In this document: one piece after another, positions 3,545-58,639 of the stretch
Position numbering within the stretch: the stretch's first letter is position 1
How the letters are laid out: every line of letters starts with the position of its first letter
Virus record (IMG/VR): IMGVR_UViG_3300035498_000956
DNA length: 64,000 nt
DNA from: a virus
Lineage: Duplodnaviria; Caudoviricetes
Reading direction: 5' to 3' (one strand)
Notes under the pieces: generated by a model
The model's input: the letters and a program-made list of their open reading frames with translations, nothing else
The model's database searches: none
What the model was told of the DNA's origin: nothing
Position numbers and translations under genes: made by a program

Positions 3545-4741
3545 TTAACATTCATCTAAATATTGGGCGGCAGAAGCAGTTAAGCTACGTTCATTTGATG
3601 AAAGTTTAACCATACCAAAAATAGATGCAAATTGTGAGGACTTTCTTAATTGAGATAAAATTCTTAATCCGTTTTTATTTCTGAAAAGTTGACTATCGGC
3701 TTGTTTAATATCTCCGTCAAAGAAAATTCGAGTATTTTCTCCACAACGTCCGATTAATAGTTTTAAATGGTCTTCTGTTAAATTCTGTGCTTCATTGGCA
3801 ATTATAATGCTATTTTTAAAACTACGTCCACGAATATAGCCAAGAGGAACTATTTCTAATTGCCCCTTATCTAAATAACCTTGAACGTAATCTGCACCGA
3901 TTAAATCAATTAATGGACCAATAGAAGGTAATGCTTTATCATTAGCATCTCCAGGGAGAAAACCTAATTCCATGGCGTTTTCAGTATAAGCGTTATTAGG
4001 AATATAAACTATTTTATCAATGCGATTTTTTAATAACTCTTGCATTGCATAGTTATTTAACAACCAGCTTTTTCCACTGCCATAATTACCTATCGCCGCG
4101 ACAATTGTAATTGATGGGGTATTTAATAATTGCAATAAGCAATCTTGTTCTTTGTTTCTGCCTTTTACTTCCTCAAAACTATTAATTACGTGCTTATGAA
4201 CAGGAATGTAATTTCCTTTACGATATTGTCTTAAATCCAAGATTTCATCATTTTGATTTTTAAAAAGTACAAATTCATTTTCGTAAATTTGCTCATTATT
4301 AATAATATTTCCATGTTCATTATTTAAAATTGATTCTAATTCTGCACTATATAAATTTTCATCTGTCTCTAGTACTACAGTTACAATACCTTCATAATCA
4401 TCTGATTTACTATAACCAATAGCAGTCACATTTTGTGCTTGAGCTTGTACTTTTAAATATATATCATTAGTTACAATTGGAACATCATAATCTTTCGCGG
4501 CGGAAATCAATTGTAAATCAACAGCATCATTTCTAGTAACTGTATCAAATTGAATTTTATCCATATTCCTACTGATTTTAATTGCAGCTCTTCTAGCATT
4601 AAAAGCAGTTTCTTGATTTAGATTATTTTTTAATCCATCTAATTCTCTTAATACGCCTAATGTTAAAATTGGTTGTTCATAGTCATCTATAACATTTGGG
4701 AAATCTAATAATACACATGAGTCTATAATTCCTATCTTCAT
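3545..4741 (-). CDS. phoH: PIN-PhoH (PhoH2/YlaK-like) protein
   Basis: N-terminal PIN (IIDSCVLLD...ELDGLK...VTND); PhoH motifs GNYGSGKS, GFLPGD, YIRGRSF, EAQN, GDIKQAD. Confidence 0.88.
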   Translation of the reverse strand: MKIGIIDSCVLLDFPNVIDDYEQPILTLGVLRELDGLKNNLNQETAFNARRAAIKISRNMDKIQFDTVTRNDAVDLQLISAAKDYDVPIVTNDIYLKVQAQAQNVTAIGYSKSDDYEGIVTVVLETDENLYSAELESILNNEHGNIINNEQIYENEFVLFKNQNDEILDLRQYRKGNYIPVHKHVINSFEEVKGRNKEQDCLLQLLNTPSITIVAAIGNYGSGKSWLLNNYAMQELLKNRIDKIVYIPNNAYTENAMELGFLPGDANDKALPSIGPLIDLIGADYVQGYLDKGQLEIVPLGYIRGRSFKNSIIIANEAQNLTEDHLKLLIGRCGENTRIFFDGDIKQADSQLFRNKNGLRILSQLRKSSQFASIFGMVKLSSNERSLTASAAQYLDEC

Positions 4742-4817
4742 TCGAATCCTCCGTTTTATAACAAAAATAGGGAGAAATCCTAAAGACTTCTCCCTTTAAA
4801 TCTCAAAGAATTAAATT

Positions 4818-5768
4818 CTATAATTCTTTAATTTGGTCAAGAGCCTTAGATAATAAATCTTTATCATCTTCAGTAATCTGAGAGAATTTCGTCTCCTTTC
4901 CAAATACTTTATTTAAAATTTCTAATACTTCATTTTGTCTATTGACTTTTATCATACTAGACCATATTTCTTTTGCTTCATTCATCAAATCATCAAATGA
5001 TTTTTCATAGTATGGATTAACTTCATTGGTAGCTGTATCTCCAGTTTCAGCGGCTTGTTTATCAATAGCATCATAGATTGAATTAACAAAATTCTCATAA
5101 GAAAATTCAATTTTATCAACCATGTATTTGTATCTTGAACCAGCCAAGAATCTGTCGTTTCCTCTAAAGAACATATAAGCTTTTTCTTCATTATCATTAA
5201 CTTTTATGCGGCGGATATAAGCAATTATATCAACCATTTTATTAATGATATTGTAAGGACGAGTTGGCAACGCTGGAACAATTTGAGTATATTCCTCGCC
5301 TTTTTCGTCTTTAAATGTCTTTTCTGTTGAGTGAGAAACGAAAATTAAACCATAACCGAGAAAAGCTAAATCATAAAATGCTCTTTGAAATTCCTTAGAA
5401 GCCATATCATAACCTTGACCATAAGGAATATCACCTAACTTTTCTACACCATTTTGATTACAAATCCATTTTACACAAGCTTCCCACGCTATATCGCAAG
5501 TATCAATACCAAGTGTATTAAACTTTTCTTGAACTTGAGGCATTTTAGCTTGTTTAATTAATTGTTTAAATTCATCCCAGCTTTTTACGGGCTGAACATA
5601 CACATTATTTAACGCATTACTACCGGGTTCAAAAGAACATAACAAACATTTTTCAAATTTTGAAACTAATGTTGTCTTGCCTACTTTTGGAAGTCCGTAA
5701 ACCAAAGTAAACTTACCTTTAAGATTTTTACTAATAACTTGTGGTTCTAAATTCATTAAATCTATCAT
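4818..5768 (-). CDS. AAA_24 / Sak4-like NTPase (probable ssDNA-annealing recombinase)
   Basis: YGLPKVGKTT, IDTCD, FVSH, AGSR; adjacent to SSB. Confidence 0.75.
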   Translation of the reverse strand: MIDLMNLEPQVISKNLKGKFTLVYGLPKVGKTTLVSKFEKCLLCSFEPGSNALNNVYVQPVKSWDEFKQLIKQAKMPQVQEKFNTLGIDTCDIAWEACVKWICNQNGVEKLGDIPYGQGYDMASKEFQRAFYDLAFLGYGLIFVSHSTEKTFKDEKGEEYTQIVPALPTRPYNIINKMVDIIAYIRRIKVNDNEEKAYMFFRGNDRFLAGSRYKYMVDKIEFSYENFVNSIYDAIDKQAAETGDTATNEVNPYYEKSFDDLMNEAKEIWSSMIKVNRQNEVLEILNKVFGKETKFSQITEDDKDLLSKALDQIKEL

Positions 5769-5828
5769 ATAATATCCTCCAAACTAAACATATAACTCTC
5801 ATTTTAAACTTAAAAATCTTAAATTTAA

Positions 5829-5853
5829 GCAATAGAGGGATTACCTCTATTGC
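5829..5853 (-). terminator. Hairpin after ssb, probable terminator
   Basis: GCAATAGAGG / CCTCTATTGC inverted repeat. Confidence 0.55.
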
Positions 5854-5864
5854 ATTTACTTCCA

Positions 5865-6767
5865 TTAGAATCCAAAATCATTCATATCATTCTTCTTAGG
5901 CTTTGGAGCAGAACTCTTATTCTTCATCGCTTCAATTCTACCCTTTCTTTCACTAAGAACAACCTTTATATCATCTGCATCGTAAGAAAATTCCTCTTCA
6001 AGACCACTCTTTGAACCAGAAGCAAGAATTAATTCCTTAGAAGTCTTAGTTCTTGTACGAGTTATATCCTCACCAAATCCCATCTCTTCCTTATAAGTTT
6101 CAACTGTTTGACTATAAACAATGTAACCAGCTATCTTAACTGTATCGCCCTTGTTCCAATAAGTCTTAACGTGATTCTTTGCATTCTCATCTGTAATATA
6201 TACATCAATGATATCTGCCTTACCATTATAACCTATTACAATTGCTTTAAGAATTAGTCTACCAGTTGGATTACCTTCCTTATCATATTCCTCATCGATA
6301 TCGTTACCAACAACACAAGTCATTTGGAACTTAGCTCTTTGTTCAAAAGGAGCTGTCTTACTCTTCTTGGAAATGAAATTAGTTGATACTTGCCAACCTG
6401 TACGTTCCATCTTAGTTGATGGATCTACCCAAAGATTTTCTTCAAGCTTACCACGATTAATTATTACTCTATCTGCTTGAGATGGTTCATCTGCCGCCGC
6501 GAGAGACGTATAATCTTCTGCCATTTGAGCGATAGAATTATAGATTTGATTCTCGCCGCCATCCTTCTTCAATCTCATTGAGAACATTCTTACAGGAATT
6601 TCTTCCTCGTAAACTTGACCCTTAATTTCTTGGTCAACACCAATTATTGCCTTTGCAGAAATATAATCTCTGCCATCATTAGTTGTTCTCTTGTCTACTT
6701 CTAATTCCTTTAAAATACCTTCGATTTCAACTACATTTTCACATTGCTTAGTTCTAATATTTAACAT
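5865..6767 (-). CDS. Single-stranded DNA-binding protein (tandem OB-fold type)
   Basis: NVVEIEGIL and KGDTVKIAG OB-like strands, acidic/aromatic tail DMNDFGF. Start reassigned to ATG 6767, 7 nt after GGAGGA. Confidence 0.65.
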   Translation of the reverse strand: MLNIRTKQCENVVEIEGILKELEVDKRTTNDGRDYISAKAIIGVDQEIKGQVYEEEIPVRMFSMRLKKDGGENQIYNSIAQMAEDYTSLAAADEPSQADRVIINRGKLEENLWVDPSTKMERTGWQVSTNFISKKSKTAPFEQRAKFQMTCVVGNDIDEEYDKEGNPTGRLILKAIVIGYNGKADIIDVYITDENAKNHVKTYWNKGDTVKIAGYIVYSQTVETYKEEMGFGEDITRTRTKTSKELILASGSKSGLEEEFSYDADDIKVVLSERKGRIEAMKNKSSAPKPKKNDMNDFGF

Positions 6768-8167: not shown

Positions 8168-10549
8168 TTATATAATCCCTACTACGTACTCGTTATCTTT
8201 TAATTCCATAGCTTTAACACCAAGAGTCATACGATTACTCTCTCGAATATCGCCGCTATTAAATTTTAGAATATTATTATTTGAAATTACAATTATCTCC
8301 TCATCATTTCCTATTGGTTTAAATTGTACAACATTATCATTTTCATTAATTTTTTGAATTTTATTACCCTTAATTCCACGATTACAAATTCCAAACTCAT
8401 CAATAGAAGATTTCTTAATCAAGCCATTTTTAGTTACACTTACTATTGATTTTGTATTCTTTGCTACAATTTTTGCATCAATTACTTCATCATTTAATAA
8501 TTTAATTGCCTTAACTCCAGCTGTAGCTCTACCAATAGCAGTAATGTCAGTTGTTTCGATAATTATAAAGTTGCCTTGTCGCGTTAAAATTCCAACGTTT
8601 TCATCGTTTACAAATAGAACATTTACAACACTATCTCCATCTTTTAAATTAATTGCTTTTAAAGAACGTCCTTTTCTTAAAGTATATTCTCTACTTAATG
8701 TTTTCTTAATCATACCATTCTTAGTTAAAAAGACAAAATATTTCGCCGCGTCTTTCTTTTCATATGTTGTGATTGTAGCAATTTCTTCATTATCTTCAAA
8801 ATCAAATAAAGATTTTAAATTAATTTTACTATTTACTGGTAATTCACTGGTATTTGTAACAAACATTCTACCTAATGTTGTGAATACCATTAAACTAGAA
8901 AAATTATCGTCAGCCAATGTCTCAATTATGGTTTCTCCTTTAGCAAGTTTAATTTTAGCTCCTTTTCCGCCACGCTTTTGAGTTAATAGAGTAGAGCTTT
9001 CTTGTGTATAGATGTTATTGAGATTTGTATAGTGGATTAGTAGTTCTTTCTTTTCTATTGGTTCTGCATCTTCGTCTTCTGAAGTGAAATCAAGATTAAT
9101 ACATTTAGTACGGCGCTTATCTCCATATTTTTCTGCCATTGTTTGAATTTCTTTAATCATTTCTTCTTTAATCTTTTCTTCTGATTCTAAAATCAATTGA
9201 ATACGATCTGCAGTTTCTTGTTTTTGATTTCTTTCATTTTCTAATTTTTCGATTTCCAAATGAGTTAAACTCGATAATCTCATCTTTAATATTGCTTCTG
9301 CTTGTTTTTCAGATAAATCATAATTTTTCATAATTAATTGTTTGGCAGATTCTGTGTTTTTTGAACTTCTAATATCTTTTACTAAATCTTCTATGTTATG
9401 AAATGCAACAATTAATCCTTCTAAAATATGGATTCTGTCTAATAATTTAGATAAGTCATATTGATATGCTTTTATAATTATAGTTTTTAAATGTTGTAAA
9501 TATGCCTCCATACTTTCTTTCCATGTAAAAAGTTTAGGAATTTTACCATTATCTAGCATATTCATATTAATAGAATATGAATTTTGAAGAATTGTATGTT
9601 TATATAATAAACGAGTTACCTTTTCAACATTAGCATTTCTTGTTAATTTAATAAAAATTTTACAACCAGAGTAATCTGTGCCATCATATACACTTTCTAC
9701 GCCTAATAATAATCCATCTTCTATTGCTTTACTAATTGAAGCTACTGCATTATTAGTAAAAGTCATATATGGCATTTCTGTAACGATTAATTCCTTATTT
9801 TCATCATCATATTCTATTTTTGCTCTTACTAATGCGGCTTTACCATTTCCATATTTCAAACTTTCTTTTACTTCATCTTCATTAATAATGATTCCACCTG
9901 TAGGAAAATCAATAGGGCAATAAATGTCTTCAAAATCAATGTCTGGATTATTGATTAACTTTTCCAGCGCCACCGCGACATCTTTAAGATTATGTGGAGG
10001 TACAGAACTAGAACAAGCAACTCCAATACCAAAACTACCATTAACTAAACTAAAAGGAAATTTTGTTGGTAAAACAGTTGGATAATATTCTTCTTCTGTA
10101 TAATTTAATTTCCAATCGTCAATAGTTTCTTTTTCTAATAAAGAAGTCATCTCATATGCAATTTCATTTCCACGCATTTCAAGATAACGGGCTTGACTAT
10201 AGTCATCTCCACTTAAATAAGAACCATTATTACCTTGTACTTCAATAATTGGATAACGTAAAGAAAAATCTTGAGATAATCTTACTGCAGTACCTAAAAT
10301 AGATGCGTCACCATGAGGTGAATATCTCATAGCTCCATTAACAGTTGCTACAGCTTTTCTTCTCTTGTCTTTATAAGTAAGCTTATCTTTATATTGAGCA
10401 TATAATATAAAACGCGCTCCGCATTTTAGTCCATCTCGTGCATCTGGTAATGCACGAGTTTGGATAACATAAGATGCATAAGGCACATAAAATGCCTGTA
10501 AAGCATCACTAACTTCCCATTCTTTTCCATTAAATTGTATTTCTGCCAT
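8168..10549 (-). CDS. gyrA: DNA gyrase subunit A
   Basis: RALPDARDGLK, PHGD, catalytic ARY, GIGVA...PPHNL, GyrA-box QKRGGKG, C-terminal beta-pinwheel repeats. Confidence 0.93.
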   Translation of the reverse strand: MAEIQFNGKEWEVSDALQAFYVPYASYVIQTRALPDARDGLKCGARFILYAQYKDKLTYKDKRRKAVATVNGAMRYSPHGDASILGTAVRLSQDFSLRYPIIEVQGNNGSYLSGDDYSQARYLEMRGNEIAYEMTSLLEKETIDDWKLNYTEEEYYPTVLPTKFPFSLVNGSFGIGVACSSSVPPHNLKDVAVALEKLINNPDIDFEDIYCPIDFPTGGIIINEDEVKESLKYGNGKAALVRAKIEYDDENKELIVTEMPYMTFTNNAVASISKAIEDGLLLGVESVYDGTDYSGCKIFIKLTRNANVEKVTRLLYKHTILQNSYSINMNMLDNGKIPKLFTWKESMEAYLQHLKTIIIKAYQYDLSKLLDRIHILEGLIVAFHNIEDLVKDIRSSKNTESAKQLIMKNYDLSEKQAEAILKMRLSSLTHLEIEKLENERNQKQETADRIQLILESEEKIKEEMIKEIQTMAEKYGDKRRTKCINLDFTSEDEDAEPIEKKELLIHYTNLNNIYTQESSTLLTQKRGGKGAKIKLAKGETIIETLADDNFSSLMVFTTLGRMFVTNTSELPVNSKINLKSLFDFEDNEEIATITTYEKKDAAKYFVFLTKNGMIKKTLSREYTLRKGRSLKAINLKDGDSVVNVLFVNDENVGILTRQGNFIIIETTDITAIGRATAGVKAIKLLNDEVIDAKIVAKNTKSIVSVTKNGLIKKSSIDEFGICNRGIKGNKIQKINENDNVVQFKPIGNDEEIIVISNNNILKFNSGDIRESNRMTLGVKAMELKDNEYVVGII

Positions 10550-10614: not shown

Positions 10615-13521
10615 TTAATCCTCCAAATTTTCAAAATCCGCATGAGAGAAAACATAATCCTTTCTTGAAACAATATCTTCTCCTAAGAGAACGTCAAAAT
10701 AATATTTTGCCTGCTCAGCGTCGTCCATTTTAATTTGAACCATTCTAGCATCTTTTGAGAATATTGTTTGTCTAAAATCTTCAGGCTGAGATTCACCTAC
10801 GTATTACTCCATTATTTCTAATGGTACTGACCATTTCTTACTGTAAAAACAGCACATCGTTTCGGTTCTCATTGGCTTCGTTTCCTAAAACCAAGACGTG
10901 TATTAATAACGTCCCTACTCCCCAGCATTTCAACCTTAGGGATGGCCGATACAAGTTACTCAATTTCAATATAGGTTTTCCTATTATAAATTCTTTTAAA
11001 CACTTCTCTAGTTACTTTATCTTTAAAGTCTTGGTATAATTCATCTAAAGTTTCGGATGAAGATCTACGTCGAATTTCTCGTATTTCCTCTATACTAAGT
11101 CTTCGACCAGATCCTTTTCCAGGGTGGCTATTCCTCATCCAAGTATGAAAAGCTATATTTTCTTTGGTGAAAACATCCATATGTACCTTTGTCCAAGTAT
11201 CACCATTCCAAATTTTATGAAATCCACTTGGTCCAATTTTATCTTTATATTGTGCATACACCTCATCTTTTATCTGATGCTTATTATATGCTTCACGAAT
11301 ATTATATACATCAGCTTCAGATAATTTATGTCGTGGATGCCTTTCGCCATCTTGAATACGAAGAACCATATTACCACCTTCGTCTTCATTGTAACCATGT
11401 TTATAAGTATCATATAACTTTATATAATATATTTCCCAATCGTTTAATTCTTCTTGTGGACAAGTTTTTAATACTTCAAAATCAAAATTTTCTGTACCAT
11501 ATTTACGAAGAGCACGATAGAACGTTTTTTCATATTCTTTATTACTTTCAACATTCCAAAAAGCTCGTTGTATATGTGTTTTTCTACGTTTTTCAATATC
11601 AATACTTTGTCCAATATAACTATGTCCATTAATTTTATTTGTAAATTTATAAATTCCTATCATAAAATCACTCCTAATATAACGTGAGTGACTATTGAGT
11701 AACTCACGAGATTATCTTCTATTCTTGAAGTAGTTTTCCTAAGCCTTAACTTTAAGAAAAACGGATTACGAGAACGTTCAGACTCCCTCGTTAGCTAAGA
11801 TTTATCTTCTTAACCTCTATTAATAAAATAGATTAGATGTGTTAGGGCCAGACTATCTCTTACCCCTTTAATCTAGTTATATCACCTTTAGGTAATTCTT
11901 TTAGTTCTTTTTCGTTATAAGCAAAATATTTTTTACCTTTACTTTCAACTTTGAATAATGGAGTTACACCCCAATATACTTTACCTGCTTTAATTAATTC
12001 TGGATAATGACAATAGAGAAATGTTAAAACTAAACATACTATATCATATCCATCTTTATCCATATCCGCCATTATAACAATTTTACCATAACGTAATTTT
12101 TTAATATTAAATTTATCTCCCACGCCGCAACCAAAAGCAACGTGTAATTGTTTTACTTCCTCGTTTGCGGCAACTTTATCAGCAGGATTTTTTAAAGCAT
12201 TAATAATCTTACCTCTTAAATCAAAGCAAGCTGTAGTTTCAGAATCTCTCGCTTTAACAAGTGCTCCCTTTGCTGATTTTCCTTCACATATCATTAATTG
12301 TGAGGATTCATCATGTCTTCTGCAGTCAGCAAGCTTTTCTACTAGTATTGCTTTTTTCTTTAATTCTTTTTGAATATCATTATTACTTGATAAAATCGCC
12401 TCTCTTGCTTTATCAGCCGCAATTTCAGCTCGTTGCACCTTAACCATCATTTCAATAATTACAGAGAAATCATTAGTCTTACTAAATTCTTCTAATCCCT
12501 CTTTCATTGCTTGAGAAGTCAAAGTTCTAAGAGACGGCGTATTAATTTTAGATTTTGTTTGATTCGCAAATGATGGGTTTGCTACTTTACAATTAACCGC
12601 ATAGATTAATCCCTTTCTCATCGATTCAGGTTCTAAATTCTTTCCACTTAATTTTTTAATTTGTGTTGTAATAGCAGTTTTCGCTCCAGTAACAGGAGTT
12701 CCTCCCTCTGGACAATATAGTCCATTAACAAACACATAACTCTTTTCTTGTCCGCCAGTCCAAATAAAGGCTACTTCAACTTCATCTGTTCCATCAGTAG
12801 CAGAACAAATAATTGGTTTTTTCATTAATGGTTTTTTAGCTACATCTTTAATGAAATCTGCAATACCATTTTTAGAATAGTATTCTTGAGATTTACTATT
12901 ATCTTGATTTTTTATTATGAATTTAATACCTTTATTTAAATAGGCAATATTTTTTATTTCTTCACAAATTCTATCAAAAGAAAAAGATTCAGTTGCGTTA
13001 ATAAAAACTTTTTTATCTGGTTGGAATGTTATTAGAGTTCCGTCTTTTTCTTTTGTTGTAGTTTCTTCATAGGATTTAAGTAATCCTTCTTCAAAGATTG
13101 CTGTCGCTGATGTTCCACTTCGGTAACTCGTTACGATAAATTTGGAAGATGACATACATACTGCCGTTCCTCCGATTCCGTTCAATCCGCTACTATTTTT
13201 ATAAGAACCTTTATCAAACTTACCACCTGTATGAGATTCAGTATAAATTGCAACCAATATATTCCTATCATCTTTGATACCAAAAGGAACACCACGTCCG
13301 AAGTCACGGCATGATATCGTTCCGTCTGTCTCATCAAGTGTAAGAATGATGCTATCACCATATCCAGCGATTGCCTCATCAGTCGAGTTATTAATGATTT
13401 CCTTTAGGGCTTGATAGATGCCCTCTGTATCGTCTGTTCCAAGATACATTTGGATACGTTGACGCATCGCATTTCTGGTATCGAGGTGCTTTATATTATC
13501 TATATTATATTCTGTACTCAT
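10615..13521 (-). CDS. gyrB: DNA gyrase subunit B, spliced: exon 1 11862-13521, exon 2 10615-10799
   Basis: EIINNSTDE, DFGRGVP, HTGGKF, GLNGIG, LRGKIIN, MADMDKDG. Splicing gives RLKG-L-GESQPEDF...FENLED*, restoring the conserved KGLGE. Start set at ATG 13521 after GAGGAGG. Confidence 0.92.
10800..11861 (-). mobile_element. Group I intron in gyrB carrying a homing endonuclease gene
   Basis: Exon ends GGGGU and pairs with GCCCU (P1). P7 is GGCCAU/AUGGUC. Terminal G at 10800. Core sequence shared with the helicase intron. Confidence 0.9.
10956..11663 (-). CDS. Intron-encoded GIY-YIG homing endonuclease
   Basis: MIGIYKFTNKINGHSYIGQS...R...E...GYN; C-terminal helical DNA-binding repeats (KLSEADVYNIR, RLSIEEIREIR). 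Confidence 0.9.
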   Translation of the reverse strand: MIGIYKFTNKINGHSYIGQSIDIEKRRKTHIQRAFWNVESNKEYEKTFYRALRKYGTENFDFEVLKTCPQEELNDWEIYYIKLYDTYKHGYNEDEGGNMVLRIQDGERHPRHKLSEADVYNIREAYNKHQIKDEVYAQYKDKIGPSGFHKIWNGDTWTKVHMDVFTKENIAFHTWMRNSHPGKGSGRRLSIEEIREIRRRSSSETLDELYQDFKDKVTREVFKRIYNRKTYIEIE

Positions 13522-14317: not shown

Positions 14318-14830
14318 TTATTTCTTTTTCTTATGATACTTTTTCGCCGCGGAATTTACAACGATTCCTTTATCTTTTTGCTCTTGTTCCCATTTACGTC
14401 TTTTCTCTGCTCGTTCAATTTCATATGTATTGATTCTACCCTCGGCCCAAATAATTTCTCTTTTGTCGGGCTTTAATCTTGCATCATCATCAAATAAAGT
14501 TTTCCATCTATCATCAAGAAAATATTCTAGTTGATAGATTTTCCTTTTTAATATTTCAACCTTCTTTTCATCTGTCTCTGTTTCTAGACATCTATTATAA
14601 TATGCATAGTCTCTTTCAATGATTGTTGGTAAATTTTTATCAAAAACCTTATGATTATGAGCTAAATATTTTGAATCCTTTAAAATCTTATTCCAAAATT
14701 TAACACCAAAGGGACTATCATAATCATGGATTCGTTGATTTTCTTTAACTAAATTCTTTATAACGTTTTTCTTCGTTCTTTTTACTGGCTTTGGACCTTT
14801 TCTCTTTTTCTCTTGATTTATATTTTCCAT
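14318..14830 (-). CDS. Hypothetical basic protein
   Basis: 170 aa, Lys/Arg-rich termini, RBS AGGAGG, own promoter. Confidence 0.65.
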   Translation of the reverse strand: MENINQEKKRKGPKPVKRTKKNVIKNLVKENQRIHDYDSPFGVKFWNKILKDSKYLAHNHKVFDKNLPTIIERDYAYYNRCLETETDEKKVEILKRKIYQLEYFLDDRWKTLFDDDARLKPDKREIIWAEGRINTYEIERAEKRRKWEQEQKDKGIVVNSAAKKYHKKKK

Positions 14831-14912
14831 ATAAATTCCTCCTTTATTTTTCTATTATCATTATATCAGAAAATAAAGAAAAAATCAAGCTAATTAAAGC
14901 TTGATTTTCATG

Positions 14913-16010
14913 TTACTTTTGAAATAGATATAAAAATTCTAAATCATAATCTTCTTGACGTTTCTTTCTTCCCTTCTTTCCATTTGTACCAATTTTATAT
15001 TTCTTAATAAATTTAAAACCAACTTTTTCTAGCTGTTCTAACCAATCTTCTGTAATATGATAATAATTTTTACTCTCATCTGAATAGTTATTTATATCAA
15101 CAGCAAAATATCCTCCAGTCTTTAACATATCATAACTATTTTTAACAGTATTATACACATAATTATTGACCCAATTATCATAATTTGCAAATTTAATTTC
15201 ACTTTGAGTATCTTCTGTACTATAATGCTCTAAATTAAAGAAAGGCGGGCATGAAAATATAAAATCAACAGACGAATTTGGTTCTATATGATTTTCAGAA
15301 CATTCTTTATATATTTTATAACTATTTTTTCTATTGGTGCATTGTTCAATATAAGAACCTAGATTTAATAGATTATCATATGTTTCAGTACATGGTTCTA
15401 CACCTATATATGTATAATTATTTTTACTTGATAATGCTCCTAGCATTCGCGCGCCAAAACCACAAGAATAATCATAAATTACACCATTTTTTGGACAAAA
15501 ACATTCATAAATAGCTTTAGCTCTCATTGGATTATAATTTGTTGGCATTTTACCATTTAATCTTCCAACACGAATAAAAAGATTACGCATATTAGAAATT
15601 TTTTCATGTTTAAAAGCAAAACGAAAAATTGTGTGTAAACAAGTTTCATTATAAAATTGATCATATAGGCTCATGTTTTTACCTTGTGTAGATGTAAATA
15701 AATTTGGAAACATAAAATCAAGAAAGACTTGTCCAGTATATGATCTAATATCTATATTTTCAGCATTAAAATCCATTACTGGATTGCTTTTAATACATCT
15801 TAAAATTTCTTTTCTAATTCCCTCTTGATTGTAATAATAAATAGGGAAAATATTAATTTCCCTAATTTTTTTTATAACTTGATTAATAATCCTATCTTGT
15901 TCATCTCTTGTTAGTTCTTTAAAATTATCTGGAATTAAGATATTTAAATCTTCAATAATACCACTATAGGCATCTTCTTTTTCTTGTGTAGCAATATAAT
16001 CCCACTGCAT
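14913..16010 (-). CDS. SAM-dependent DNA methyltransferase-like protein (amino-MTase type)
   Basis: Motif I YDYSCGFGARMLG, YIGVEP, motif IV-like FSCPPFFNLEHY. Confidence 0.75.
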   Translation of the reverse strand: MQWDYIATQEKEDAYSGIIEDLNILIPDNFKELTRDEQDRIINQVIKKIREINIFPIYYYNQEGIRKEILRCIKSNPVMDFNAENIDIRSYTGQVFLDFMFPNLFTSTQGKNMSLYDQFYNETCLHTIFRFAFKHEKISNMRNLFIRVGRLNGKMPTNYNPMRAKAIYECFCPKNGVIYDYSCGFGARMLGALSSKNNYTYIGVEPCTETYDNLLNLGSYIEQCTNRKNSYKIYKECSENHIEPNSSVDFIFSCPPFFNLEHYSTEDTQSEIKFANYDNWVNNYVYNTVKNSYDMLKTGGYFAVDINNYSDESKNYYHITEDWLEQLEKVGFKFIKKYKIGTNGKKGRKKRQEDYDLEFLYLFQK

Positions 16011-16021
16011 ACGAAGCCTCC

Positions 16022-16195
16022 TTAATATCCTAATAAATTATCCCATTTCTTATTTGCAACAAGAATTGGTAATTCTGTTTCACTAAATTTCTTCCATTTC
16101 TTCATAAAATCAATAGCACATTTACACTCATCACAATTTTCATCACATTCAGGATTATCCTTTTGTAAAGGACACTTTAATTGCTTAAATTTCAT
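16022..16195 (-). CDS. Small Cys-rich protein (57 aa), not in the ORF track
   Basis: MKFKQLKCPLQKDNPECDENCDECKCAIDF...LLGY*; TAATG coupling to the nrdG stop. Confidence 0.6.
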   Translation of the reverse strand: MKFKQLKCPLQKDNPECDENCDECKCAIDFMKKWKKFSETELPILVANKKWDNLLGY

Positions 16196-16731
16196 TATGA
16201 TTCCTCCTTAAAATATTCTTTACTTATATTTTCCCATTTTAATCCATTATCATAGAATTTATATGCTTGTTGATTTGTACTACCTCTAAAATCTAAAATT
16301 TTAGTGGAGCGGCTCTTATCATAACGTCCATCTATCATTATATCAATTAATTGTAAAAAATCAATAGCGCCATTAATTTTTAGAAAATTTTCTAATATAA
16401 ATCCAGTATAAACAATAATTTGTAAAGGTTCTTTACGATTTTTAATATCATCATTATCTCTAATTTCGCGGCAAAATTTGGTAACTGTATCTAAATTTCT
16501 TGGATGACAAGGATCGCCGCCGAGTAATACAAAACTTTTTATATGAGGATTCTTTAAAGATTCTATTATCTTATCTTCTATTGATTTATCAAATAGCTTC
16601 CCTGCATTAAAATCCCATGTTTCAGAATTAAAACAATCCTCGCAATGTTGTTCACAACCTGATACCCATAAAGTCGTGGATAATCCATGACTATTCGCAG
16701 TATCGAAATATAACACTTTTGAATAGTTCAT
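16195..16731 (-). CDS. nrdG: Anaerobic ribonucleotide reductase activase
   Basis: Radical SAM motif WVSGCEQHCEDCFN, LLGGDP, DGRY, FRGSTNQ. Confidence 0.93.
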   Translation of the reverse strand: MNYSKVLYFDTANSHGLSTTLWVSGCEQHCEDCFNSETWDFNAGKLFDKSIEDKIIESLKNPHIKSFVLLGGDPCHPRNLDTVTKFCREIRDNDDIKNRKEPLQIIVYTGFILENFLKINGAIDFLQLIDIMIDGRYDKSRSTKILDFRGSTNQQAYKFYDNGLKWENISKEYFKEES

Positions 16732-16732
16732 T

Positions 16733-17281
16733 TTAATCCTCCCATCTTAATCTGATAACACTACAATTTACTTGCACTCCATTAACTTTTCTTCTGGTTT
16801 CAATTACGTCAAAGCCTTGGGAAATTATCAAACGTTTAACAGAGGGCCATTTTAACTGTTTTCCACTTGTTCCTTTGAGATTAAAGAACTTACTAATCTT
16901 TTCTTTATCTTCTTTTAATAAAGGTTTTTCTAATAATCTTGTAATTAATTGAATAATTTCCTTTTTAGTTGGCTCTTTATCTTCTTTCTCTTGATATGAA
17001 TCAATAGAAGCATTGATTTTATTATAACCTTTTTCAATTGAATTATAAAGATTAATATAATAAGCTTCTCTTTCGTTTAATTCATCTTCTTTACATTCCT
17101 CTAAAATTTGGAATCTAAACCTATAAGGATGCTCATATAGTTCATAATGAAGCTCATCTTCAACTGAAGTCGCATAACGACCTTGTTCTATATGTTCTCC
17201 CCAGCGGCGAGATATATCAAGTGATTTTCCAATGTACTTCTTATTGTCACGAATATTTTCAATCATATAAATACCTATCAT
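16733..17281 (-). CDS. Free-standing GIY-YIG endonuclease
   Basis: MIGIYMIENIRDNKKYIGKS...RW...E...GYN. Confidence 0.8.
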   Translation of the reverse strand: MIGIYMIENIRDNKKYIGKSLDISRRWGEHIEQGRYATSVEDELHYELYEHPYRFRFQILEECKEDELNEREAYYINLYNSIEKGYNKINASIDSYQEKEDKEPTKKEIIQLITRLLEKPLLKEDKEKISKFFNLKGTSGKQLKWPSVKRLIISQGFDVIETRRKVNGVQVNCSVIRLRWED

Positions 17282-17808: not shown

Positions 17809-18771
17809 TTAATGAGGAATTTTTGCTGCTGTTAATAATTCTTCCATACCAAGTCCACCTTGTTCCCATTTTCTCATACAATAGTCATAGATATTAGGAT
17901 TAGATTGTTTTAATAGTTCAAAACGATTTGGTGATTTTTCTTTATGTACGCCAAAACCACAATATATACAACCTGTTTGATTTCGTTCTGTACAATATAA
18001 TTGATCATTTTCATTTCTTTTAATTTCTCCATAGCATTTAGATAAAGGTAGATCATATCGTAGTATATATTCTAAAATATCGTTATTGGTCCAAAAACCT
18101 AATGGTGTGCTAACTTTTCTTACTGCTTTAAAACTATTACATCCTTCTCTTAAATAAGATTCAAGTCTTTGTTTACTTTCTTCCGCTAAAGTCCCAATAA
18201 AAGGATGTCTGCCAGTTTCTTTTTCATATCTTTTAGCTGGTTCTTTCTTCATGATTGTACAACAAGCATCATTGATCATGTAGTCTGAATTGTTATATAA
18301 TTCAAGCGCATATTTAGGTAATGGAGAATATACATAGTCAAGACCAGTGGATTTCTTTGTACGAATGCCTTTAATATAACGTTCTTCTTGTTCATAGTCT
18401 CCTTTCTTATGTGATTGTCGCGCGGCGTAAAAGATATGTGATACTCCTTTTGTAAAAAGTGGATAGCCATATTCTTGAATAACTTCTCTAAAATTCTTTT
18501 TTGGTCTTAAAATTGTAATGTTTGGAATACTTTTTGCATTAGCTTTGTTTTCGGGCCATTCTAATCCAGTGTCAATATAAACAGCGGGTATATCAGGATA
18601 AACACTGCGAACCAAGTGAGTTAGAACCGTACTATCTTTCCCCCCCGAAGTTGAAATGTATACACCGTCTTGACCATATTCTTTTACCCATTCCATTATT
18701 CTTACTTTTGATTTTTCAATTTTAACATCTAATGGAAGTGCTTGTAACATTTTTAATTCGTCTCTTGTCAT
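17809..18771 (-). CDS. PAPS-reductase-family (PP-loop, Fe-S) protein
   Basis: STSGGKDSTVL, DTGLE, CCTIMKKEP, TGCIYCGFG. Confidence 0.85.
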   Translation of the reverse strand: MTRDELKMLQALPLDVKIEKSKVRIMEWVKEYGQDGVYISTSGGKDSTVLTHLVRSVYPDIPAVYIDTGLEWPENKANAKSIPNITILRPKKNFREVIQEYGYPLFTKGVSHIFYAARQSHKKGDYEQEERYIKGIRTKKSTGLDYVYSPLPKYALELYNNSDYMINDACCTIMKKEPAKRYEKETGRHPFIGTLAEESKQRLESYLREGCNSFKAVRKVSTPLGFWTNNDILEYILRYDLPLSKCYGEIKRNENDQLYCTERNQTGCIYCGFGVHKEKSPNRFELLKQSNPNIYDYCMRKWEQGGLGMEELLTAAKIPH

Positions 18772-21089: not shown

Positions 21090-21467
21090 CTATTCTCTAG
21101 TCTCTAATTGTACTAATTCATCATACAGTTCTTTTGCAAAAGAATTGCCACCATTTTTTTGATAGGCATCATAAAGACTTATTAAATCTTTCTTAACATT
21201 CTTTGGTAAATAACCTTTAGAAATCCATTCATCATAAATCTCTACAATCTCATGACGTAGCGCCGCGAGAGAAGCTTCCTTATTATCTCCCAATTTATTC
21301 TCTAAATTTTTAAATTGATCATTAAAAGATTCCTCATTTAATACTTCTTTAATTATATTTTTAATCCATGTTTTTGGTTTATTTAAAATTAAAGTTGCAC
21401 AAGTAGAAATTGTAATAATACTACCACATACGCCACCGATAATTGATAAAATCTCTATAACTCCCAT
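21090..21467 (-). CDS. Membrane-anchored phage protein (holin-associated type)
   Basis: N-terminal TM segment; LRHEI...LYDAY..NGGNS pattern. Confidence 0.55.
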   Translation of the reverse strand: MGVIEILSIIGGVCGSIITISTCATLILNKPKTWIKNIIKEVLNEESFNDQFKNLENKLGDNKEASLAALRHEIVEIYDEWISKGYLPKNVKKDLISLYDAYQKNGGNSFAKELYDELVQLETRE

Positions 21468-21880
21468 TATTTTATACCTCCTAAATAGTCATTATGATAA
21501 ATTGATCTAACTCTATAAGCTGGGTTATTAAAAATTTGCTCAAAAGTTAAATTTTCTAAATCCCAGTAGGGGATTCTAATAAGAGGTATATTTTTCCTAA
21601 TACAATATCGATTTTTAATTCTATCGTATCCTTTTCTTTTGTTAAAATTCGTAATAGTCTTATGGAAAAATTTAACAAATTGAAAATGAATTTCACTATC
21701 GTACTCAATTAAACAAATTAATTGATTTTGATTATTATACACTCCTATGTCAAAACGTAGAGGTGCGCCGTGACTACCTTTTAAATCACTAAACTCAACT
21801 TCTCTACGGCATTTTATATTATGTCGTTGTAAAATATTTATAATTTTCTGCTCTCCTTTACTTGGTTCATTAATCTTCAT
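21467..21880 (-). CDS. PD-(D/E)XK / DUF559-Vsr-like endonuclease
   Basis: SKGEQKI, LRFDIGV, IEYDSEIHF, DRIKN, LIRIPYW. Confidence 0.75.
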   Translation of the reverse strand: MKINEPSKGEQKIINILQRHNIKCRREVEFSDLKGSHGAPLRFDIGVYNNQNQLICLIEYDSEIHFQFVKFFHKTITNFNKRKGYDRIKNRYCIRKNIPLIRIPYWDLENLTFEQIFNNPAYRVRSIYHNDYLGGIK

Positions 21881-24566: not shown

Positions 24567-25076
24567 TTAATTTTTTATATGATTATTATAAAATTCTTTC
24601 GCCGCGAAATATAGATCTTCTTTTGTATGATTATTATCAATGATGTAATCATATGAATAATTTTCTACGTTTTTATCTGCATCGTTATTAAATTTAGTAT
24701 CAGTTTTTCTATCAATAAAAATTGTTTCTGCTTTAAAATCATCAACAAAACGTTGTATTTCTTCAGGTTCTCTACAATGAATAAAAAGAGCTGTTGCATC
24801 TTGAATATATAAATTATGAATCATTTTGGAAATATTTTGATATGGTAAATCATTCCATTCAGTTAATAAATTTTTTAGATTACATAACATTTTTCTACTC
24901 TTTTCATTCTTTTCTCCATTCCAACCTAACATATCCATTGCTAATTGTTTAATATTATCAATAGTAGACATGATGTGAATATCTATTACTCCATCTTGTC
25001 TCGCACAATCTTGAACGTAATAACAAAATGTGTCTTTTCCTGCTGTTGCATATCCATTAATTACAAATATCTTCAT
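24567..25076 (-). CDS. P-loop nucleotide (dNMP) kinase-like protein
   Basis: INGYATAGKDT, CREPEE, YDYIIDN. Confidence 0.7.
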   Translation of the reverse strand: MKIFVINGYATAGKDTFCYYVQDCARQDGVIDIHIMSTIDNIKQLAMDMLGWNGEKNEKSRKMLCNLKNLLTEWNDLPYQNISKMIHNLYIQDATALFIHCREPEEIQRFVDDFKAETIFIDRKTDTKFNNDADKNVENYSYDYIIDNNHTKEDLYFAAKEFYNNHIKN

Positions 25077-44524: not shown

Positions 44525-44812
44525 ATGGCTAAGCGTATTACTGATGAGATGATTGTTCAGATTAATGAAGAGTATAGTCGTGACCCAGTAAAAAGTCATG
44601 TAGCTAAAAAGCTGGGGATTTCCCCAGCGACAGTTACAAAATATCTAAAGGATAATTATCAAGAGATAAAGAATCAAGTTGTAGAAAAAACTAATTTTGA
44701 ACTACCTGACGCGGCGACAATAAAACTAGGTGATGATTGGGGAGCGTTATGTGCTTTATCAGAAGAAGAATGGGCGGAGTTGAAGGAATTGCAAAAGTCT
44801 ATTCTTGTATAG
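44525..44812 (+). CDS. HTH-domain protein
   Basis: KSHVAKKLGISPATVTKYL. Confidence 0.65.
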   Translation: MAKRITDEMIVQINEEYSRDPVKSHVAKKLGISPATVTKYLKDNYQEIKNQVVEKTNFELPDAATIKLGDDWGALCALSEEEWAELKELQKSILV

Positions 44813-48641: not shown

Positions 48642-49400
48642 ATGATTAATAATGATATACAAAAATATACAGAGCGATGTATGTTGTTCTATTTTTTTGA
48701 TTCAATACCATTATTGCGAAATGCTGAAAAAAATCGTGTTGTGCAAGACTTTATTGACATAAGAGACATAGACAAAGAATTAGCAGATAAAATGGTATTA
48801 TGTGCTAGAGATATAAGCAATGGATATGGAGAGCGTAGAGTTGGCAGAATTTTACTACAAACTTTAGCAACTTTAGACCCAACAAAAGTTATAAGGAATT
48901 TATCCACATTTGTTGAAATAGGTAGATGGGATGATTTATTTATATTAGAGGGCACTCCATGTGAAGATGCAATGTGGAAATTTATTAAAAAACAAATTAA
49001 ACAAGATTTAGACGATATGAAAGATGGTAAAAATATTTCTTATTTATTCAAATGGATGCCATCTATTAATACTTCTAGTAAAGAAAAAGTTAGATTAGCT
49101 AAAAAGATTTGTACACTCTTTGGTTACACTGAAAGAGAATATAGGAAAATGTTATCAAAAGGAAGGGAATATTTAAGAATAGTTGAAAGAAAAATGAGTG
49201 CAAATCAATGGGACGATATAATTTTTGAAGTTGTACCTGTCGCGGCGAAACGACAGTATCATAAATCTTTCAAACGTCATTGTTCTTCTTTTGATTATGA
49301 ACAAAAAGAATGTCCTATTCAAACTGTTGATGTTAATCAAGTGGAACAATCTCAATATGAACTAATGATAGAAAAATTAAACAGTTACGAATATAAATAG
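48642..49400 (+). CDS. DUF2828 / TROVE-like helical protein (short, no C-terminal vWA seen)
   Basis: ARDIS.GYGERR, GRWDDL, KWMPS, YRKMLS, IVERKMSANQW..I.F..VP; start at ATG 48642 after GGAGG. Confidence 0.65.
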   Translation: MINNDIQKYTERCMLFYFFDSIPLLRNAEKNRVVQDFIDIRDIDKELADKMVLCARDISNGYGERRVGRILLQTLATLDPTKVIRNLSTFVEIGRWDDLFILEGTPCEDAMWKFIKKQIKQDLDDMKDGKNISYLFKWMPSINTSSKEKVRLAKKICTLFGYTEREYRKMLSKGREYLRIVERKMSANQWDDIIFEVVPVAAKRQYHKSFKRHCSSFDYEQKECPIQTVDVNQVEQSQYELMIEKLNSYEYK

Positions 49401-50662: not shown

Positions 50663-51783
50663 TGTTAGAGATTCAAAAGTTTTTAATACAATATGATGAT
50701 GCATTAGAGAGATTGACTAAACCTCCTTATAATTTAAAAATCAAAAGTAAGAATGGTCTTTATATATTTAGTTATCGTCAATTTGATAGTGATTTTACTT
50801 TAGAAATCGTTAAAGAGTCAAGAGGTCTAATACTTGAAGCTGATACGTGGAAAGTAGTTCGTTACTCTTTTAAAAAGTTTGGTAATTATGGGGAATCTTA
50901 CGCCGACAAAATTGATTGGGACAGTGCTGTTGTTACTGAAAAAATTGACGGCAGTATTATAGCTCTTTACTATTATAATGGAAAGTGGAATGTTGCAACA
51001 AATGGTATGATTGATGCAGAGGATGCTCCTTTAATGGAGACTTGCATTTATAAAAACTATAAAGAGTTGTTTGATTCCGCGGCGAAAAAGGTAGGATTGG
51101 ATTATAGTCATTTAAACACTTCTATGTGTTATACTTTTGAACTGGTCAGTGAATTTAATAAAATTGTATTAGACTATCCTCTTGATTTATATCATTTATC
51201 TACAAGAAATCTTACTACCCTTGAGGAAATAGAGATTGATATTGGAATACGTAAACCGCAGACTTTCGCATTGTCCAGTTTAGCTGATGTTATTGACGCG
51301 GCGAAAGCGTTAGGTAAAAATGGGGAAGGATTTGTCGTTAAGGATAAAAATTGCAATCGTATTAAAGTTAAATCCCCTGAATATGTTTTGGGACATAAGC
51401 TAAGGGATAGTGTAACTACTGCAGAGCTATTGGATATTGTAAAGAGGGGTGAACAAGAAGAGTTTTTAACATATTTTTCTGGTCTAGAAAGTCGTATTCA
51501 AAGAATAGAGCAATACTATAAAGAGGTATCTAAAGCTATCAGCCAGCAAATCACCAATGCAATCAATCTCTATAAAGAAAATTCTAATCGAAAGGATTTT
51601 GCTTTGGCTATTGATTCTCAAAAAATTCCTATAGCTTATAGACAATTTTATTTTACAGCTTATGGCGAGCTTACAGCTCATAGAGATTCGCCTTATAAGA
51701 CTATTATAAAAAAGTATTTTGATAATACTCCTTCTGCTAAGATTTTAAAAACATTTCCTATTGACGATTTTACGTTAAATTAG
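50662..51783 (+). CDS. RNA ligase (T4 Rnl1-like)
   Basis: ESRGLIL, FKKFGN, motif I TEKIDGS, TFELVS, GEGFVV, RIKVKSPEY; TAATG-coupled to the phosphoesterase. Confidence 0.85.
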   Translation: MLEIQKFLIQYDDALERLTKPPYNLKIKSKNGLYIFSYRQFDSDFTLEIVKESRGLILEADTWKVVRYSFKKFGNYGESYADKIDWDSAVVTEKIDGSIIALYYYNGKWNVATNGMIDAEDAPLMETCIYKNYKELFDSAAKKVGLDYSHLNTSMCYTFELVSEFNKIVLDYPLDLYHLSTRNLTTLEEIEIDIGIRKPQTFALSSLADVIDAAKALGKNGEGFVVKDKNCNRIKVKSPEYVLGHKLRDSVTTAELLDIVKRGEQEEFLTYFSGLESRIQRIEQYYKEVSKAISQQITNAINLYKENSNRKDFALAIDSQKIPIAYRQFYFTAYGELTAHRDSPYKTIIKKYFDNTPSAKILKTFPIDDFTLN

Positions 51784-55044: not shown

Positions 55045-55049
55045 TTTAA

Positions 55050-55581: not shown

Positions 55582-55646
55582 GCTAATTGATTTTATTTAC
55601 AACCTGTGATATAATAATTATAGTGAATTTGAAAAGGAGAGCTGAA

Positions 55647-55967: not shown

Positions 55968-55986
55968 ATAAGGAGGACGTTAGCTT

Positions 55987-56391: not shown

Positions 56392-56459
56392 AAACATAAT
56401 TGATTTTTCTTAAAGAGTATGATATAATAATTACAGAAAATGAGAAAGGGGTTTTGCAT

Positions 56460-56624: not shown

Positions 56625-56713
56625 TACACTTGATTTCGCCCGCAAATTATGATATAATAATTATAGAAAATGAGAGTTAAGTTTGACAGTTTCTTTTGAA
56701 AGGAGAACTGAGT

Positions 56714-57013: not shown

Positions 57014-57018
57014 GGAGG

Positions 57019-57420
57019 GTGAATATGGTTACTTATAGTGATAAAACTCTCCGAGAGATACATAATGAATGTTTCAAGGTCTATGTCACTGATGGCTCAT
57101 TTGAGCCATTAAGTGATGGCTTTGATTTCATTGAGGAAAAATATCAAGTGAAAGAAAGATTAGAGCATATTTTTAAAGATGTGGAAGTTCAAACTCAACG
57201 ATGTATTTTAATAGGGACAGTATTTTGTTGCATCGTGCCTAACAAAACTTTTATAGAAATTCAAAGCGTGTTTGCTACAATGGTTATGATGATGCGTGAA
57301 TTAGATATTCCACAAATTATCATTCCAGAATTTTCTAATAATTGGAATGACATCAAAATTGCACTTGAAAACAGCTGTGATATTATTCCAGCTGATATAA
57401 AGATTTGTAAGGAGGTATAG
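57019..57420 (+). CDS. Hypothetical protein
   Basis: 133 aa, RBS AAGGAGG. Confidence 0.55.
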   Translation: MNMVTYSDKTLREIHNECFKVYVTDGSFEPLSDGFDFIEEKYQVKERLEHIFKDVEVQTQRCILIGTVFCCIVPNKTFIEIQSVFATMVMMMRELDIPQIIIPEFSNNWNDIKIALENSCDIIPADIKICKEV

Positions 57421-57511
57421 CTATGGTAAATATAGTTATTAATAATGATATTAATAATTCAGTAGTTGAATTGAACGTGCCAGTTCAAATAGCTTATGAA
57501 TTAGCCGACTA

Positions 57512-58042
57512 ATGTCGATAATGGAAGAGATTTATATTATGACGCATTTAATACATCAGTTTGATGAAGGAGGCAACGTGTTTAGTTTGATTTCACAAGG
57601 TTCTTCAAAATCAGTTTGGGAAGTTGCTGAGGGTTATGTCATAAAAACTCCCAATATGGAATATGATTATTGTCAAGACGAGATTAATTTATATAATGAA
57701 GCTCGTGAACAAGGACTAAGTAAATTCTTTGCTTTGACTTTTAAGTTTGATAATCATGAAATTCAAGAGCGGGTTGAACCAGTAGAGATGGTTCAATGCC
57801 AAGATACAAAGCAGATAGTTCAATGGAATACAGATATGACTGGTAAAGGATTTGAAACTATTCAATATGAAATGTCTGTTAATTTACAGCAGAAACTTCT
57901 AGAAAAATATGGTGAGGAAGAGCTACTAAAGTTTGATGAGTTCGTTACTAATTTTGGTATTAATGATATTAGAGATAATAACTGGGGTTATAATGAACGA
58001 GGTAATCTAGTATTATTTGATTTTAGTGGTTACGCCGATTAG
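57512..58042 (+). CDS. Protein-kinase-like fold protein
   Basis: ISQGSSKSVW, YVIKTP, E helix, IQERV, catalytic-loop-like DIRDNN, LFDFSG. Confidence 0.7.
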   Translation: MSIMEEIYIMTHLIHQFDEGGNVFSLISQGSSKSVWEVAEGYVIKTPNMEYDYCQDEINLYNEAREQGLSKFFALTFKFDNHEIQERVEPVEMVQCQDTKQIVQWNTDMTGKGFETIQYEMSVNLQQKLLEKYGEEELLKFDEFVTNFGINDIRDNNWGYNERGNLVLFDFSGYAD

Positions 58043-58054
58043 GGGAATAGATAG

Positions 58055-58639
58055 ATGGATTTAAACAAAAGAAAGAAGTTATCGAATTTATGGGTGATTT
58101 CAGGTTTTGTAGTAAATTTAGTATCATCTTTTGTTTATCCCTTCGTCTATTATATAGCACTGCAAGCTATTCCATCGAGTTTATTGTCTTTTGAGCAGAT
58201 AATAAGTTGCCTTGGAGTAGCTTTTTTTGGTTTTCTATGGAATAGAATAGGGGATAAACTGTTTCGACATTTTACTAGTGCAATTCTTATCAACATCATA
58301 GGAACGATTGCTATTATTATAGTTACGTTATTGACTAAAAATTTATCAGCTTATTATTTAATCAACGTGGTTATCGCCGCGACAGTATCAACGAATGTAA
58401 CCTGCGGGCATATTAAAATGAAGACATTGATTAATCCGACAAGCGAAGAACGAGAACATTTTGACAACCGCAATAACACAGCTTATTCAATAGGAACACT
58501 ATGTGGGGCGACGCTGGCATTGTTTTCTTCTATTGACTTTACAACGGCATTTGTGGCATCGAATATAATATACATAATAGATGATATCGTGTCCATCTAT
58601 ATTTATAAGCAGATAAAATCAAATGAAAAACAGAGTTGA
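58055..58639 (+). CDS. Multi-pass membrane protein (half-MFS-like)
   Basis: ~6 hydrophobic segments; GFLWNRIGDKL resembles the MFS motif A loop. Confidence 0.6.
   Translation: MDLNKRKKLSNLWVISGFVVNLVSSFVYPFVYYIALQAIPSSLLSFEQIISCLGVAFFGFLWNRIGDKLFRHFTSAILINIIGTIAIIIVTLLTKNLSAYYLINVVIAATVSTNVTCGHIKMKTLINPTSEEREHFDNRNNTAYSIGTLCGATLALFSSIDFTTAFVASNIIYIIDDIVSIYIYKQIKSNEKQS

Follow-up and report, generated by a model that had tools for sequence, protein, structure and literature searches.

Why should an AT-rich phage genome carry, again and again inside its genes, the GC-only word CGCSGCG (S being C or G)? The question is raised by a stretch of 64,000 nucleotides from the virus record IMGVR_UViG_3300035498_000956 (Caudoviricetes), the whole of which is referred to here as the window, and in which an original prediction had listed 15 exact copies, well above the less than one expected by chance, and proposed a selected DNA-level signal analogous to the HIP1 word of cyanobacteria. 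Every one of the 15 listed positions holds an exact CGCSGCG and there are no others in the window, which has a GC content of 31.8%. In dinucleotide-preserving shuffles the word occurred 0.11 times on average and twice at most, well under one copy as had been claimed, and an order-2 Markov model gives an expectation of 0.30. The excess over chance is more than 100-fold, at about one site per 4 kb (0.23 per kb), and among the 77 GC-only heptamers of the window CGCSGCG ranks top with its 15 copies, the runner-up reaching 7, whereas CGCWGCG (W being A or T) has 0 occurrences. As a pattern the word is its own reverse complement, a 7-bp palindrome of odd length, and its sites are given here without strand. 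Both reported extensions are present, TCGCSGCGA four times and the 13-bp palindrome TTTCGCCGCGAAA at 24597–24609. Gaps between sites range from 219 to 8052 bp and look random, without clustering. By an exact protein match the window is part of an uncultured phage from animal-gut samples, represented by a 158,354-bp JGI metagenome contig, position x of the window being position 94466 − x of that record; five further sites lie within the adjoining 12 kb, the survey covering all but about 74 kb of the 158-kb genome.

All 15 sites lie within open reading frames (ORFs) and are read on the coding strand as CGCGGCG in 11 cases and as CGCCGCG in 4. They share one single frame, NNC-GCS-GCG, encoding X-Ala-Ala in 15 of 15 cases. 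It had also been claimed that Ala-Ala is spelled here with GCG or GCC in a genome that otherwise prefers GCA and GCT, and the Ala codons of the window are indeed GCA (45%), GCT (37%), GCG (13%) and GCC (5%). Among the 52 Ala-Ala pairs of the window, GCG-GCG is found 18 times as against 0.8 expected from codon usage and GCC-GCG 5 times as against 0.4, and GCG-GCC, which includes the avoided tetramer GGCC, is never used. Fifteen of the 23 GCS-GCG pairs are preceded by C, a base that makes up 8.7% of third positions (binomial p of about 3e-11). The expectation for the full word from codon usage is about 0.1 (52 × 0.087 for third-position C × 0.18 for GCS × 0.127 for GCG), an analytic product of the codon figures of the window and not a shuffle. 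This low expectation and the excess of preceding C indicate that the enrichment persists under codon-aware reasoning.

A single frame, and the fact that all 15 sites are transcribed, might suggest a signal at the level of RNA or translation, either an Ala-Ala codon context or an mRNA motif recognised by an RNA-binding protein or nuclease of the phage; the palindrome is present in the transcript of either orientation, and RNA ligase, polynucleotide kinase and a Ro/TROVE-like protein are encoded by the phage. However, translation gives no reason for the two-fold symmetry, for NNC before the pair or for the flanking T/A at positions −3/+3 that is described below. In addition, the sub-word GCGGCGA occurs 6 times in a second frame, NGC GGC GAN, in which it encodes Gly, suggesting that the pressure acts on a DNA word and not on an Ala codon pair, and relatives with the same RNA-handling genes are without the word. 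A signal of this kind is therefore considered highly improbable.

How the sites came about can be seen by comparison with relatives, which are referred to here by percent identity (L042, 75% in topoisomerase II subunit A; L043, 69%; L044, 67%; G001, 66%; G003, 55%). Of five orthologous positions checked, four are without Ala-Ala in relatives. The site at 8744–8750 in topoisomerase II subunit A encodes KDAAKY (GAC GCG GCG), whereas the 75% relative has KDLVKY (GAC CTA GTA) and the 69%, 67% and 66% relatives have KKQVEY, RDNIDY and KEKVKY, respectively. In the PhoH-like gene the site at 4094–4100 (GTC GCG GCG, IVAAIG) corresponds to IIYAGG or ILYASG in relatives and the site at 4496–4502 (TCC GCC GCG, ISAAKD) to LYIAKA or IELTKS, and in the gene similar to 3'-phosphoadenosine 5'-phosphosulfate (PAPS) reductase the site at 18421–18427 (TAC GCC GCG, FYAARQ) corresponds to IQYARY in the 75% relative. 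Only the site at 6495–6501 in the YorF-like gene (CTC GCG GCG GCA, SLAAAD) has an ancestral Ala-Ala, the 75% relative showing SMAAAD and other relatives SLASAE and SSDAAE. At four of the five positions the word was thus made by residue replacement, and Ala-Ala pairs made in this way are not expected from a codon-pair preference or from the avoidance of restriction sites. The sites are all retained in close strains; at 51078–51084, in the RNA ligase gene, DSAAKK is replaced by DSAVKK in a 95%-identical variant protein, so that this site differs in a near relative.

Phages typically avoid short palindromes, these being restriction sites, and many are depleted in the window: CCGG (2 against 32 expected, 0.06), GGCC (9 against 52, 0.17), CCWGG (5 against 34, 0.15), GATC (58 against 220, 0.26) and GAATTC (1 against 28) are rare, and GCATGC, GAGCTC, GGATCC and GTCGAC are absent. 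GCWGC belongs among them, with 21 copies against 42.5 expected (0.49), 13 of which are found within the fibre genes at 26471–35490; elsewhere there are 8 in 55 kb, a four- to five-fold depletion, and the 20.7-kb replication stretch L024 has a GCSGC:GCWGC ratio of 31:2. The original prediction, which had dismissed GCWGC avoidance, was mistaken about the depletion itself but right in that avoidance alone fails to explain the rest of the word. CGCSGCG could in principle be a by-product of restriction-site avoidance and codon constraints, namely the default spelling of X-Ala-Ala that remains without GCWGC, GGCC and CCGG. GCWGC avoidance does lead to GCS at the first Ala codon, GCG-GCC is not used at all, and the words of the relatives, too, are each free of the 4-mers avoided by the phage that carries them: the window avoids GGCC and CCGG and not CGCG, G001 avoids CGCG and GTAC and tolerates GGCC, and G003 avoids GGCC (1 against 146), GCGC and CTAG. 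What such avoidance leaves unexplained is the choice of GCG for the second codon (23 of 35 pairs, against a usage of 12.7%), the preceding C (15 of 23 against 8.7%), the flanks, and the Ala-Ala pairs newly made by replacement. Furthermore, in G001 and G003 GCSGC is raised five- to six-fold without any depletion of GCWGC. It is therefore quite improbable that avoidance and codon constraints account for the word.

The symmetry of the word extends beyond its seven bases. In the window, positions −3/+3 are T/A in 28 of 30 half-sites and positions −1/+1 in 18 of 30; for the five further sites beyond the window, which form an independent set, A stands at position 3 in 6 of 10 cases, giving 34 of 40 overall. 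The flank preference is real, though weaker than first apparent. Partial words are enriched as well. Among 31 one-off variants of CGCSGCG, 22 differ at an outer position, 19 of these being NGCGGCG, and GCGGCGA is found 23 times in the window against 0.48 expected. As 20 of these 23 lie on the coding strand, which is the G-rich strand of each arm, and as the strand switches at the GC-skew minimum near 25 kb (the divergence point of the genes, at about 26 kb, coincides with the flip in skew), it was considered whether an oriented GCGGCGA(A) might be the true signal, Chi-like or otherwise strand-specific and following replication or transcription, with the palindrome as its by-product. Known Chi sites are G-rich, as GCGGCGA is, and like the 5–8-mers used by RecBCD or AddAB at about one per 4 kb, GCGGCGA is found once per 3–4 kb. 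However, outside the window only 6 of 10 copies are co-oriented with genes, and the overall 26 of 33 (79%) is about what is given by the bias for GCG over GCC codons, so that an oriented signal is not needed. Moreover, C precedes CGCGGCG much more often than background would give, CGCCGCG stands on the coding strand at 4 sites, and five candidate host-type genomes, chosen through relatives of the lysin and not proven to be hosts, show no excess over a reversed control word. Unlike Chi, which is asymmetric and defined by a host enzyme, the phage word is palindromic and its orientation bias is explained by codon usage. A Chi-like origin is accordingly judged improbable.

These results argue strongly that CGCSGCG is a positively driven DNA-level signal, which we hold with high confidence. 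The proposed analogy to HIP1 is upheld in so far as the word survives the codon-usage expectation, is partly built by amino-acid replacement and gives way to different palindromes in relatives. Along the genome it is densest, at about 0.35 per kb (one per about 3 kb), in the replication module, which is SPbeta-like and includes, adjoining the window, genes for PolIII-alpha, RecJ, ClpP, dUTPase and a YorF-like protein. It is sparsest in the early-gene region and in the strain-variable fibre genes, the 9-kb block of the latter containing the site at 32335–32341 (TIAAGE) as its sole copy. A distribution that is dense in a conserved module and sparse in variable genes fits a slow accumulation in long-resident DNA. 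The fibre genes (26471–35490) have a GC content of 0.36–0.39 and have kept GCW-GCN Ala-Ala pairs and GCWGC, and the length of the fibre varies among strains (more than 1512, 2549 and 2677 amino acids); they give the impression of DNA acquired by recent exchange, on which the resident regime of word and avoidance has yet to leave its mark. Within the 2677-amino-acid fibre gene, TCTCATGCAGARGG occurs 46 times at a spacing of 42 bp (29369–34206), corresponding to a 14-residue protein repeat (S-H-A-E-G type, YadA-head/collagen region), and this array explains the other top k-mers of the window.

When the relatives were searched for GC-only words, it became evident that CGCSGCG is lineage-specific and that relatives show other GC palindromes or none. 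The closest, L042 (a 139.6-kb contig), shows no excess, 22 kb of it containing 5 GC-only heptamers where 3.8 are expected, and L043 has 14 against 5 expected and no dominant word. In L044 there are 42 against 9.5, including 7 GCCGGC in 22 kb; L044 was also considered as a second carrier of CGCSGCG, with five sites, and was rejected, one of these being in a terminator stem and others within longer GC runs. The complete genome of G001 (178,685 bp) has no copy of CGCSGCG and contains GCGGCCGC 14 times against about 0.1 expected, with Ala-Ala-Ala written GCG GCC GCA, and in G003 TGCSGCA is found 49 times against 7.4 expected. Genetic codes also differ in this group. G001 is TAG-recoded, its coding fraction rising from 0.57 to 0.85 on TAG readthrough, as is L044, with 8 in-frame TAG in PhoH; the relative L030 uses TAG as Gln, L028 and L029 can be translated only with TGA as Trp, and the window phage uses the standard code.

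Which process could drive such a word is suggested by the highly iterated palindromes (HIPs) of cyanobacteria. HIP1 (GCGATCGC) and the alternate HIPs are GC-rich palindromes present at 500–2500 per Mb (Elhai, 2015; PMC4390886); alternate HIPs, among them GCsGC in Cyanothece PCC 7822, replace HIP1 in some genomes, every HIP word has a matching methyltransferase, one-off variants differ at outer positions, and a methylation-dependent mismatch-repair ratchet has been proposed as the cause (PMC4390886). The phage word resembles these in being a short GC-rich palindrome, over-represented about a hundred-fold and scattered within genes, in being replaced by different palindromes in related genomes, in having one-off variants mostly at outer positions, in co-occurring with lineage-specific methyltransferases, and in its core GCSGC, which is a published alternate HIP. 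It differs in its carrier, a phage of 32% GC that probably infects gut Clostridia and not a cyanobacterial chromosome, in being an odd palindrome of 7 bp, in that its sites were demonstrably made by amino-acid replacement, and in that a phage methyltransferase of matching specificity is at present only a candidate.

This candidate reader of the word is P0002 (14913–16010, minus strand), the product of a gene private to the lineage, a 365-amino-acid protein with the fold of S-adenosylmethionine (SAM)-dependent methyltransferases, with motif I DYSCGFG and motif IV SCPPF. The fold is secure from its confident predicted model (pLDDT 90.5), the best matches of which are generic class I SAM methyltransferases, Bud23, Trm11 and TrmI being at the top. 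PF01555 is found on some P0002 homologues, N4-cytosine or DNA methyltransferase is the annotation given to distant phage homologues, and no homologue above 50% identity was present in the protein collection searched. A second candidate, the ORF at 21870–22718 with an NPPY string, was rejected, having no family or PDB match. P0002 occupies a slot between nrdG and gyrB (14318–17281 in the window) whose content differs from lineage to lineage. In L042 (2279–7085) this slot holds one C5 methyltransferase, two Dam-like methyltransferases and a PAPS reductase, in G001 (on L020) a C5 methyltransferase, a second C5 methyltransferase being encoded elsewhere in that genome, and in L043 (7194–8000) only an HNH gene and no methyltransferase; depending on the lineage it can also hold a PAPS-reductase-like gene or homing endonucleases. 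Neither G001 nor G003 has P0002, and in the contig of a near relative (run X4) position 14908 is followed, after 6 other letters, by position 16022, so that exactly P0002 is missing.

The two C5 methyltransferases of G001, at L019 1501–2412 and L020 1264–2187, are both small, and sequence searches against PDB gave their family only. The catalytic domain of Dnmt3 is the best likeness of one; in the other, an alignment that starts at its first residues runs to M.HhaI 74–319, a later stretch (204–269) matches plant DRM-type enzymes, and its motif order may therefore be permuted.

A methyltransferase-linked driver of CGCSGCG is our best single guess, as yet unproven, and the whole explanation, that of a HIP-kind word private to this phage lineage and driven in connection with a methyltransferase, seems to us evenly balanced between right and wrong. 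Several observations weigh against it. As the matches closest to P0002 are rRNA and tRNA enzymes, a DNA substrate is unproven and presumed only. Three contigs with P0002 homologues of 48–49% identity contain 0, 1 and 0 copies of CGCSGCG, which at that distance shows no link between enzyme and word and carries no information on specificity; L042 lacks a GC-only word despite the three methyltransferases in its island. A search for Vsr in G001 and G003 gave no match, the flank symmetry is weaker at the independent outside sites, and the density of 0.23 per kb is below the 0.5–2.5 per kb of cyanobacteria.

Another source of symmetric sites would be a dimeric DNA-binding protein of phage or host, which would serve to organise, compact or package the genome or to control its replication, much like Noc or ParB, without any role for methylation. 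A 13-bp consensus with two-fold symmetry and a required G/C centre, sites dispersed along the genome without clustering, selection strong enough to change amino acids, and the presence nearby of genes for an HTH_7 protein and other small unknown proteins could all be understood in this way, and Noc sites and parS likewise are two-fold-symmetric sites of 13–16 bp in tens of copies along a genome. However, the partial words are enriched too (19 NGCGGCG, and 23 GCGGCGA against 0.5), a pattern more readily explained by a stepwise ratchet than by selection acting on whole binding sites. Among the roughly 45 window ORFs scanned there was no Pfam or PHROG match to the ParB/Noc family, the density of the phage word is much higher than that of Noc sites or parS, its spacing (219 to 8052 bp) looks random, and close relatives do without such a word. 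Binding sites of this kind are regarded as possible but rather unlikely. The original prediction had also suggested a segregation or packaging site, a gyrase site or the target of the phage methyltransferase; the odd-length symmetry counts weakly against a site for a type IIA topoisomerase, and the support for a methyltransferase target is circumstantial.

Words that grow in other ways offer further comparison for the methyltransferase-linked reading. Very-short-patch (VSP) repair over-represents CCWGG and its relatives in E. coli (Bhagwat and McClelland, 1992; Merkl et al., 1992, as cited in PMC4687349). As would be the case for the phage word, a methyltransferase target there grows via biased mismatch correction while the site itself is not selected. 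In E. coli the VSP-driven excess is less than two-fold and changes are from T to C only, whereas the phage excess is more than 100-fold and requires transversions too (CTA GTA to GCG GCG), and no Vsr was found in the two relatives searched. The uptake signal sequences (USS) and DNA uptake sequences (DUS) of Pasteurellaceae and Neisseriaceae (PMC1939737) are, like CGCSGCG, DNA-level words accumulating at tolerant gene positions, but they are non-palindromic, serve uptake in competent bacteria and are family-wide, whereas the phage word is private to its lineage. Within the literature collection searched, no description of such words in Firmicutes phages was found.

Taken together, the element consists of a core CGC-S-GCG with weaker symmetric flanks, T at −3 and A at +3, T/A being favoured at −1/+1. 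A positive DNA-level pressure has placed it in long-resident genes, at about one copy per 4 kb, at points where the protein tolerates it and always as NNC-GCS-GCG. The sites arose by synonymous recoding and, more often, by residue replacement that creates a new Ala-Ala. For the first Ala codon, avoidance of GCWGC would favour GCS independently of this pressure. The source of the pressure would be a DNA enzyme or binding protein that recognises a specific sequence with two-fold symmetry and changes its specificity rapidly from one lineage to the next; a methyltransferase-linked process via P0002 or a host enzyme is the leading candidate. The word might accumulate because marked sites are selected, or because repair biased by methylation acts as a ratchet, the mechanism that Elhai (2015) proposed for HIP.

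The remaining sites are in the following genes. Those at 14345–14351 (NSAAKK, near the C-terminus of a 170-amino-acid ORF adjoining the methyltransferase-like gene) and 36658–36664 (SSAAKK, in the GH25/dockerin/M15 lysin) share with the RNA ligase site at 51078 the identical 15 bases TTCCGCGGCGAAAAA, encoding S-A-A-K-K in three unrelated proteins, which may be due to chance given the flank preferences. The RNA ligase gene has a second site at 51297–51303 (IDAAKA). The 13-bp palindrome at 24597–24609 lies in a dNMP-kinase-like gene (YFAAKE), and the site at 49241–49247 (PVAAKR) in the gene of a phrog_850 RNA-binding protein. The others are at 21261–21267 in a 125-amino-acid ORF (SLAALR), at 44710–44716 in a short ORF of more than 70 amino acids with the same frame (PDAAT), and at 58375–58381 in a 194-amino-acid ORF (VIAATV).

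The gene content of the window includes topoisomerase II subunits A and B, NrdD/NrdG, PhoH, an ATP-dependent ligase, RNase H, RNA ligase, polynucleotide kinase, a Dda-like helicase, GIY-YIG and HNH homing endonucleases, a 2677-amino-acid collagen/YadA-repeat fibre, a GH25-dockerin-M15 lysin and a Ro/TROVE-like protein. The GIY-YIG endonuclease ORF between gyrB and gyrA (10956–11693) is skipped by contigs in all four runs examined, indicating that this homing-endonuclease gene varies in presence, and in strain L051/L052 gyrB is split into pieces of 115, 206 and 431 amino acids. Relatives of the lysin are found in metagenome-assembled genomes of Oscillospiraceae, Clostridia, Lachnospiraceae and Ruminococcus, and an animal-gut metatranscriptome (run X1) contains 31% of the sampled words of the stretch. 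The window gave no match in a megablast search against GenBank phages, nor was it found by scanning viral and metagenome contigs for its exact words.

For the biology of these phages, the finding means that one specific palindrome is enriched by a phage that avoids others, and that relatives do the same for different words. It also means that a DNA-level word pressure can alter protein sequence, which is relevant for reading substitution patterns in phage genes. This lineage, whose genome has 158 kb, whose sister strains either carry or lack the candidate methyltransferase and whose enzyme island can be swapped, offers a small, fast-evolving system for the open question of whether HIP words reflect functional selection or methylation-biased repair. 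A broader and doubtful conjecture is that each large phage of this SPbeta-like gut group bears a private genome word, a GC-only palindrome placed in its genes in tens of copies, if need be through amino-acid changes, and serving as a self-mark read by the modification enzyme swapped in and out of the nrdG-gyrB island. If this were true, the mark could allow phage DNA to be distinguished from that of the host while host DNA is degraded or in repair or packaging, and upon a swap of the enzyme the old word would decay while a new word would build up.

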